From the NCBI RefSeq assembly GCF_045037415.1, contig NZ_CP173438.1: DNA of 64,000 bases, one strand, 5' to 3'. This document shows positions 54,001 to 57,000 of this stretch, piece after piece. The DNA comes from Escherichia coli. GTDB taxonomy: Bacteria; Pseudomonadota; Gammaproteobacteria; Enterobacterales; Enterobacteriaceae. How positions within the stretch are numbered: position 1 is the first letter of the stretch; every line of letters begins with the position of its first letter. The position numbers were made by a program.

Positions 54001-57000
54001 CAATTGGTTATGAATAAATTAACTTTCAGTTTATCACACTAGTAAATCGAGATTAATAAGTCATTTAAACCATTTTGATGGTTATTTATTAGTGATATCA
54101 ACTTGAGGTAAGCGTTAGTTTCGATAAGATAAACTGAGTTATTAATAGTCGAGGCAGATAATACAGTGTACCGATCTGTCTCTTTATCTACGCTAAATTG
54201 AAAGCTGGATTTAGAGGAACCAAAATGTCTGAACGAGAAACACGGGGAGCCAATGAGGCTATTGATTTTAACGATGAACTGAGAAATCGCCGCGAAAAAC
54301 TGGCGGCACTACGTCAGCAAGGTGTGGCGTTTCCCAATGATTTTCGCCGCGACCATACCTCTGACCAGTTGCACGAAGAGTTTGATGCGAAGGATAACCA
54401 GGAACTGGAATCCTTAAACATTGAAGTCTCGGTTGCTGGCCGAATGATGACCCGTCGTATTATGGGGAAAGCCTCCTTTGTAACGTTGCAGGATGTCGGT
54501 GGCCGTATTCAACTGTACGTTGCAAGAGATAGCCTGCCAGAAGGTGTTTATAACGATCAGTTTAAAAAATGGGATCTGGGTGACATTATCGGTGCCCGCG
54601 GTACGCTGTTTAAGACGCAAACGGGTGAGCTTTCCATTCACTGTACTGAGCTGCGCCTGCTGACTAAAGCACTACGTCCTTTACCAGATAAATTCCATGG
54701 TCTGCAGGATCAGGAAGTCCGTTATCGTCAACGTTATCTGGACCTCATCGCTAACGATAAATCCCGTCAAACGTTTGTTGTCCGTTCAAAAATTCTGGCC
54801 GCTATCCGTCAGTTCATGGTCGCGCGCGGCTTTATGGAAGTAGAAACCCCGATGATGCAGGTAATTCCAGGTGGGGCATCTGCTCGCCCGTTTATTACCC
54901 ATCATAACGCTCTGGATTTAGATATGTACCTGCGTATCGCGCCGGAGCTGTATCTGAAACGTCTGGTTGTAGGCGGTTTTGAACGGGTATTCGAAATCAA
55001 CCGTAACTTCCGTAATGAAGGTATTTCTGTTCGCCATAATCCTGAGTTCACAATGATGGAACTCTACATGGCATATGCGGATTACCATGATTTGATTGAA
55101 CTGACGGAGTCACTGTTCCGCACCCTGGCACAAGAGGTACTGGGTACCACTAAAGTCACTTATGGCGAGCATGTGTTTGATTTCGGCAAACCGTTTGAAA
55201 AACTCACCATGCGCGAAGCAATCAAAAAATATCGTCCAGAAACCGATATGGCGGATCTGGATAATTTTGATGCTGCTAAAGCATTAGCTGAATCTATCGG
55301 TATTACGGTAGAGAAAAGCTGGGGACTGGGGCGTATTGTTACGGAGATCTTTGATGAAGTGGCAGAAGCACATCTGATTCAGCCAACCTTTATTACGGAA
55401 TATCCGGCAGAAGTGTCCCCGCTGGCGCGCCGTAATGATGTTAACCCGGAAATCACCGACCGTTTTGAATTCTTCATCGGTGGTCGTGAAATTGGTAATG
55501 GTTTTAGCGAATTAAACGACGCAGAAGATCAGGCTGAACGTTTCCAGGAACAGGTTAACGCTAAAGCTGCAGGTGACGACGAAGCCATGTTCTATGACGA
55601 AGATTACGTGACTGCGCTGGAATATGGTCTGCCGCCAACCGCTGGTCTGGGTATTGGTATCGACCGAATGATTATGCTGTTTACAAACAGTCATACTATT
55701 CGCGACGTTATTCTCTTCCCGGCGATGCGCCCACAGAAATAAATTTCACTTTAATGAACGAAGCAGTCAGGCGACTGCTTCGTTCGTCATTCCGCAAATC
55801 CAGTTTTGAGGAGAGACGCTTCGTTTCAAGATAACCAGCGGGTCCACTCAACTACAGCTCCTAAAAGAGAGAAAAAAGTAATGCCACAGGCAAACTCATT
55901 GGCCAGGTTATTCCGACCAGAAATGCACTAAGTAAACGAATATGTGTTTTCTCATGTGAGATAAACCAGATAATGACAAAGGATATGTTCACACCAATCA
56001 CATAAAAAATTAATATTTTAGAGAATAGTGCCATTTTTTATGTTCTTCTTATCCTTCCTGGCTACTTGTAAAACTGACGGAAATAGTCATCAACTGTCAT
56101 AATGCTGAGGTCAAAATCAATATCCGGTAAGTCTAAGCATTTGAGCCTGATTAAATCTTCGATTTCACTTGCGGCTAACGATGTCGTTATTGCGAAGGAG
56201 TTTTCATTCAATTGTCGTGGTATCCCATATTCATCAGCCACGATAGAGGAGAAATTCATATCATACATCAATGATCTTAACCTTAAGAACACTGAGGAAT
56301 AAGATGATGGATAATCAAAAGAAACAACATAAGTATTGAACTTGTTTTTACCTTCCATAATATGACTCCTATCAATATTGAACGCTCTGGGGACGCAAAA
56401 CTTATTAACCCCGAATGATGATTCTCATATAGGAGATATTCTTTTTTTTTTGCTCAGTAAAGGGGATGACTTGGGACAAAAAAACGCTCTCTCTGACCAT
56501 TCTTTGTGCATCTCCTACCCTTCAGATGCTCTCCTGCATCACACCGCGGAGAGCATGAAAAATATCGTGACTCTGTACTCTCCCATCAACTGCGAATATC
56601 ATCATACTCCCGTGTTTTATCAAATTCGTGTTTCGCAAATGGGCATAGTGGGATAATTTTTCGTTTTTCCCGACGCATTTTTTCCACGACTTTCGCAACC
56701 AGCTGTTTACCAATCCCTTGTCCTTTCAGGCTTTCATCGACATCGGTATGTTCGATAATCGCTAAATTCTCTCCGGTCGGCACAAAGACAATTTCAGCGA
56801 TTTGCTTGCCCTGTTCGTCATTAATGTAAAATTTATTGTGGCCTTCGCGTATTTCCATTTTACCCTCGCTTATTTATGACGGTATTTCAGCGCACCGCTC
56901 GGGCACGTACGTTTGAGGTTAAATAACTTGCCGTTACCACGTACGCAATTGCCAGAATTTGTAGTGATGCGATGGGCACCACTTTCCAGGGTAGTCAGAG

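Follow-up and report, generated by a model that had tools for sequence, protein, structure and literature searches.

The toxin gene ghoT of the type V GhoT/GhoS toxin-antitoxin pair beside lysU in an Escherichia coli chromosome

Introduction

Does a 57-codon open reading frame lying between lysU and ghoS in a stretch of Escherichia coli DNA encode a protein, and, if so, is that protein the membrane toxin GhoT? The frame occupies positions 55861-56034 on the minus strand of the window, by which is meant the whole 64,000-nucleotide stretch of contig NZ_CP173438.1 that was analysed. An earlier note had read it as a ghoT gene missed by the ORF track. The evidence presented here indicates that the window carries the chromosomal E. 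coli ghoT, the toxin half of a type V system, in its usual position and with the published mechanism of the identical K-12 protein (probability about 0.97). The GhoT/GhoS type V system was described by Wang et al. (2012, Nat Chem Biol 8:855, cited in PMC4344625). The features at the locus are as follows.

54225-55742, plus strand: lysU, lysyl-tRNA synthetase (NCBIfam PRK12445, 1203 bits)
55756-55785, no strand assigned: perfect 13-bp inverted repeat, GAACGAAGCAGTC / GACTGCTTCGTTC, with a 4-nt loop, in the interval that separates the stops of the convergent genes ghoT and lysU
55861-56034, minus strand: ghoT coding sequence (intact frame; PF10753; identity to K-12 b4559; RefSeq WP_001173343.1)
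56035-56061, minus strand: ghoS-ghoT spacer of 27 nt, with a purine-rich, Shine-Dalgarno-like stretch, CCAGGAAGGATAAGAAGAACATAAAAA, before the ghoT ATG (read from the sequence)
56062-56358, minus strand: ghoS coding sequence (98 codons), the antitoxin, a sequence-specific endoribonuclease cleaving ghoT mRNA (PF11080; PDB 2LLZ; WP_001312331.1)
56359-56585, minus strand: yjdJ-ghoS intergenic region of 227 nt (defined by position only)

Reading frame and identity of the product

Translation of the minus strand from 56034 to 55861 gave MALFSKILIFYVIGVNISFVIIWFISHEKTHIRLLSAFLVGITWPMSLPVALLFSLF followed by a TAG stop, that is, 57 codons without a break, and the mechanical ORF list holds the same frame (55861 to 56034, minus strand, 57 aa, ATG start); the uninterrupted frame described from the sequence is thereby confirmed. 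A 57-codon ORF alone is no evidence of a gene, because the ORF list contains numerous chance ORFs of 30-60 aa in the AT-rich stretch around ghoT, where G+C is 34% against 47% for the window. That the frame is itself such a chance ORF in AT-rich intergenic DNA, yielding no protein, is nevertheless vanishingly improbable and is refuted by homology, since the product matches PF10753 over the full length of the family with E = 8.9e-26, is identical to a characterised toxin for which loss-of-toxicity mutants exist (PMC4344625), differs from the K-12 gene by synonymous changes only, and is encoded at a locus kept in about 98% of complete E. coli genomes.

The match to PF10753 (Toxin_GhoT_OrtT) scored 90.4 bits against a gathering cut-off of 22.1 and placed residues 4-57 of the product on profile positions 1-55 of 55. 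Aligned to K-12 GhoT (b4559), the product is identical at 57/57 residues (100%), with two nucleotide differences between the genes; the assignment to GhoT made in the earlier note is thus upheld along the entire protein. The product has two hydrophobic stretches, at about residues 6-26 and 34-57, with a polar loop, HEKTHIR, between them, and its GRAVY value is +1.5. In Kyte-Doolittle windows of 17 residues, the two maxima are 2.48, over residues 7-23, and 1.85, over residues 38-54, and the polar trough between them (22-38) lies around HEKTHIR. The two stretches agree with the two-transmembrane-domain prediction quoted in PMC4344625. Residue 38 is phenylalanine in the window, and it is at this position that the substitution F38R abolishes the toxicity of GhoT; toxicity was lost in both the start-codon and the F38R mutants (PMC4344625). 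A search of PDB sequences with GhoT returned no solved structure.

A scan of GhoT and GhoS against NCBIfam release 20 produced no family (0 at E up to 0.01), in contrast to the strong Pfam matches of both proteins. The NCBIfam blank is a gap in that HMM library and is not evidence against the identity of either protein, because Pfam and RefSeq both name the genes. It follows that annotation by NCBIfam HMMs alone, combined with a length cut-off, would miss the GhoT/GhoS pair.

A second reading of the frame is that it encodes the orphan toxin OrtT (YdcX), or an OrtT-like copy, working without a dedicated antitoxin. GhoT and OrtT share the family PF10753, are equal in length and are 63% identical to each other (PMC4344625), so the family match is common to both. 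The identity values and the synteny nonetheless refute this reading, which is to be regarded as extremely improbable: identity of the product to its K-12 counterparts is 100% for GhoT and 63% for OrtT, and the ORF lies directly 3' of ghoS and beside lysU, not in the patD-yncL-ortT-ydcY context. Moreover, the ORF is without GCU, of which two sites are reported in the ortT mRNA (PMC4344625).

An identity as a type I toxin paired with an antisense RNA was also considered and rejected: there is no Rfam family near the locus, and the neighbouring gene encodes a protein antitoxin. At or near ghoT, no Rfam family reached its gathering score, the sole match in the window being an ALIL pseudoknot at 24285-24401.

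Annotation, conservation and gene order

That the gene is indeed GhoT is also the view of public annotation. For strain SK1144, whose sequence agrees with the window at 99.98% between 49700 and 62600, RefSeq places a CDS at locus 6162-6335 (equal to 55861-56034 of the window) under the name 'ghoT, type V toxin-antitoxin system toxin GhoT, WP_001173343.1', its neighbours being ghoS, yjdJ and the lysU paralogue (labelled lysS). RefSeq gives an equal ghoT/ghoS annotation for strain p11A (WP_001173343.1, WP_001312331.1). The claim that the gene had been missed by the ORF track holds with one qualification: the product, at 57 aa, is lost to a length cut-off of 60 aa only, and standard public annotation does call ghoT. 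The cut-off is a plausible explanation for the omission, since the default minimum of the ORF lister is 60 aa. ORF tracks with a floor of 60 aa lose real and functionally important small genes, of which ghoT is a textbook case.

A 901-nt query across the locus found a match in 5342 of 5426 complete E. coli genomes (about 98%), and 5264 of these cover at least 80% of the query. The gene order cadC-cadBA-dtpC-lysU / ghoT-ghoS-yjdJ matches that of K-12, and the interval from yjdJ to lysU (843 nt) is 98.0% identical to that of K-12 MG1655. The position between lysU and ghoS given in the earlier note is likewise correct, with lysU on the plus strand and convergent to ghoT, and ghoS on the minus strand. 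Two side observations concern lysU. The mechanical ORF begins at TTG 54198 (54198-55742, 514 aa), and the start in RefSeq and K-12 is the ATG at 54225 (505 aa). In addition, the pipeline label 'lysS' is attached to this lysU paralogue, and the cadBA-dtpC neighbourhood shows that it is lysU.

The GhoS antitoxin and its Ser85 allele

The gene upstream of ghoT encodes GhoS, which completes the type V pair as had been proposed. Its product matches PF11080 (endoribonuclease GhoS) with E = 1.1e-40 and PDB entry 2LLZ ('yjdK', an earlier name for ghoS) with E = 4e-61 over residues 1-98, that is, all 98. Leu25, Arg28 and Met31 are all present in the GhoS of the window, and Arg28 is singled out in PMC4010927 as the residue that matters most for GhoS nuclease activity, alongside four further catalytic residues.

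Compared with K-12, ghoS carries two nucleotide differences, one of which produces N85S, the sole amino acid change (97/98 identical). The base responsible lies at 56105, in codon 85 of the minus-strand gene, and the Ser85 allele adjoins a virulence island (tagC). Of 5229 genomes compared with a 61-nt query centred on this base, 1026 match it exactly (identity band of 99% or more) and 4203 show one mismatch or more; as a measure of Ser85 the count is approximate, since other differences inside the 61-mer also lower identity. Ser85 thus looks like a common lineage allele, found in about 20% of complete E. coli genomes. It is conceivable, though very unlikely, that Ser85 GhoS differs from the K-12 protein in the specificity or efficiency of RNA cleavage and so shifts the threshold for GhoT release in a B2/ST131-like lineage, the support for this being the existence of the substitution alone.

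Layout of the ghoST region

The two genes lie on the same strand with the antitoxin first. The stretch CCAGGAAGGATAAGAAGAACATAAAAA in the spacer between them may serve as the ribosome-binding site of ghoT, and the region 56359-56585 upstream of ghoS presumably supplies the ghoST operon with its promoter and 5' leader. A consensus promoter scan of 55600-56900 returned 4 sites against 3.4 expected from shuffles, and none stood out upstream of ghoS. On the other side of ghoT, 118 nt separate its stop from the convergent lysU stop. RNA folding of 55743-55863 (121 nt, minus strand) gave -41.8 kcal/mol with z = -3.8, and 0 of 200 shuffles folded as well. A strict terminator scan of 55600-56900 reported 0 terminators; the 13-bp hairpin went unreported for lack of a run of 5 T after the stem. 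The hairpin at 55756-55785 probably acts as a two-way terminator for both ghoT and lysU transcripts.

GCU sites and proposed mechanism

Three GCU sites occur in ghoS (nucleotides 121, 213 and 221) and none in ghoT or the spacer. The complete lack of GCU from an AT-rich gene of 174 nt is only mildly unusual when taken alone (P about 0.10 in shuffles), and the ghoT mRNA has been described as free of GCU sites (PMC4344625). Cleavage of ghoS mRNA by MqsR, resulting in enrichment of ghoT mRNA, is reported in PMC4010927. The distribution observed here, with GCU in ghoS and none in ghoT, matches this published logic, in which MqsR degrades the ghoS mRNA and spares that of ghoT. The identity and integrity of ghoT and ghoS, their order, their key residues and this GCU asymmetry are direct observations on the window.

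The published mechanism is taken over for this locus because the protein is identical to the experimentally studied K-12 GhoT; co-transcription, cleavage of ghoT RNA and GhoT toxicity are accordingly drawn from the literature on that protein and would apply here by analogy. Under this model, ghoS and ghoT would be transcribed together, and GhoS, a stable Cas2-like endoribonuclease, would cut the ghoT part of the message so that little toxin is made. Under stress, the GCU-specific mRNA nuclease MqsR would destroy the ghoS message and spare that of ghoT. GhoT would then be made and would enter the inner membrane via its two hydrophobic helices, where it would be expected to collapse the proton-motive force and the ATP level, with slowed growth and, at high dose, lysed 'ghost' cells as the outcome. 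The endoribonuclease activity of GhoS, release by MqsR, and membrane damage and ATP loss caused by GhoT are documented in PMC4344625 and PMC4010927, two sources from one laboratory. According to both, it is established for the K-12 proteins that GhoS acts by cleaving ghoT mRNA, that toxin and antitoxin form no protein complex and that the antitoxin does not autoregulate (PMC4344625, PMC4010927). Of the K-12 proteins on which the mechanism was worked out, GhoT is identical to that of the window and GhoS is identical at 97/98 residues.

A further alternative accepts the gene as a true ghoT and holds that it is physiologically silent at its native level, with phenotypes appearing on plasmid over-expression only and the pair being retained on other grounds (a vestigial or addiction-like module is one example). 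The phenotypes described in PMC4344625 and PMC4010927 were for the most part obtained by inducing expression from plasmids (pCA24N constructs), no strong promoter was detected upstream, and the title of at least one paper disputes roles of toxin-antitoxin systems in cell death (PMC5996881). However, a ghoT deletion strain stressed with carbenicillin and cefoxitin shows altered metabolism, a phenotype at native level (PMC4344625), and near-universal conservation with synonymous change only points to purifying selection. This alternative is considered unlikely, and it concerns the biology of GhoT/GhoS in general and not the locus in the window. The preferred reading, a chromosomal ghoT with the mechanism of its K-12 counterpart, contains nothing new at the locus, as gene, product, partner and mechanism have all been described before. 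Because of this, and because the coordinates are already called by public pipelines, the finding bears on no open question; its value is one of bookkeeping, in that it completes the GhoT/GhoS pair in the window.

Strain background and surrounding islands

A tagC island and a pheU-type island mark the source of the window as an extraintestinal pathogenic E. coli of B2/ST131-like type. The first 25 kb are 100% identical to the blood isolates p11A and p11B (ST131-like) and to related strains, and the region upstream of cadC, from 1 to about 46.3 kb (1-46300), is genomic-island cargo that includes the following features.

5294-9139: dsdCXA
About 10572-20721: choline trimethylamine-lyase cutC/cutD bacterial microcompartment cluster
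23469-24682: IS3 element with an ALIL frameshift pseudoknot (Rfam match 24285-24401)
29092-29970: restriction endonuclease
39755-40556: CbtA/CbeA type IV toxin-antitoxin pair
42094-44345, minus strand: IS21-family element (istB 42094-42849, istA 42846-44345)
44668-46203: EAL-domain protein

SK1144 has other cargo (Dr/Afa adhesin, Ag43) in this pheU-side position. In the window the IS21-family element at 42094-44345 looks intact; p11A, identical in other respects, has an IS66-family insertion (ISEc23) that splits istA. As a result of that insertion, the start of cadC, at 47007 in the window and at 49547 of the p11A locus, is offset by 2540 bp.

Beyond yjdJ, on the other side of ghoST, lies the tagC island, with a G+C of 41%.

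56870-56968, minus strand: C-terminal remnant of yjdI, a RefSeq pseudogene, most of yjdI having been replaced by the island
57072-61001, minus strand: serine-protease autotransporter of 1309 aa (Peptidase_S6, beta-solenoid region, autotransporter beta-domain)
62157-62987, minus strand: AraC-family regulator, after the autotransporter gene

The 1309-aa autotransporter has GDSGS at residue 250 and an EVN(1032)NLNKRM linker. Its length, GDSGS and EVN(1032)NLNKRM match the published TagC of extraintestinal pathogenic E. coli, which suggests that the gene is tagC (PMC6592367). The published tagBC island lies between yjdI and yjdK, the latter being ghoS (PMC6592367). Between tagC and position 64000, where the window ends, there is no second SPATE-sized ORF; any tagB must therefore lie outside the window.

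Comparison with known systems

The closest known counterpart is GhoT of K-12 (YjdO, b4559), which is the same protein at the same length, with ghoS 27 nt upstream, yjdJ and lysU as neighbours, no GCU in the gene and Phe38. The window departs from the K-12 locus in the two synonymous changes in ghoT, in having Ser85 and not Asn85 in GhoS, and in the replacement of most of yjdI by the tagC island.

OrtT (YdcX, b1445) resembles GhoT in belonging to PF10753, in its length of 57 aa, in being a predicted two-helix inner-membrane protein and in carrying Phe38, and the C-terminal motif SAFLVGxTWPMSxPVALLFSLF is common to the two toxins. It is unlike GhoT in being only 63% identical, in having no adjoining antitoxin gene, in its location at another locus and in the GCU sites of its mRNA.

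Type I membrane toxins such as Hok, TisB, Ldr and Ibs are small hydrophobic peptides of the inner membrane that dissipate membrane potential and ATP. These toxins are silenced by antisense RNA, whereas the neighbour of ghoT encodes a protein endoribonuclease, and they have no sequence relationship to GhoT, for which PF10753 alone scored above the Pfam cut-off.
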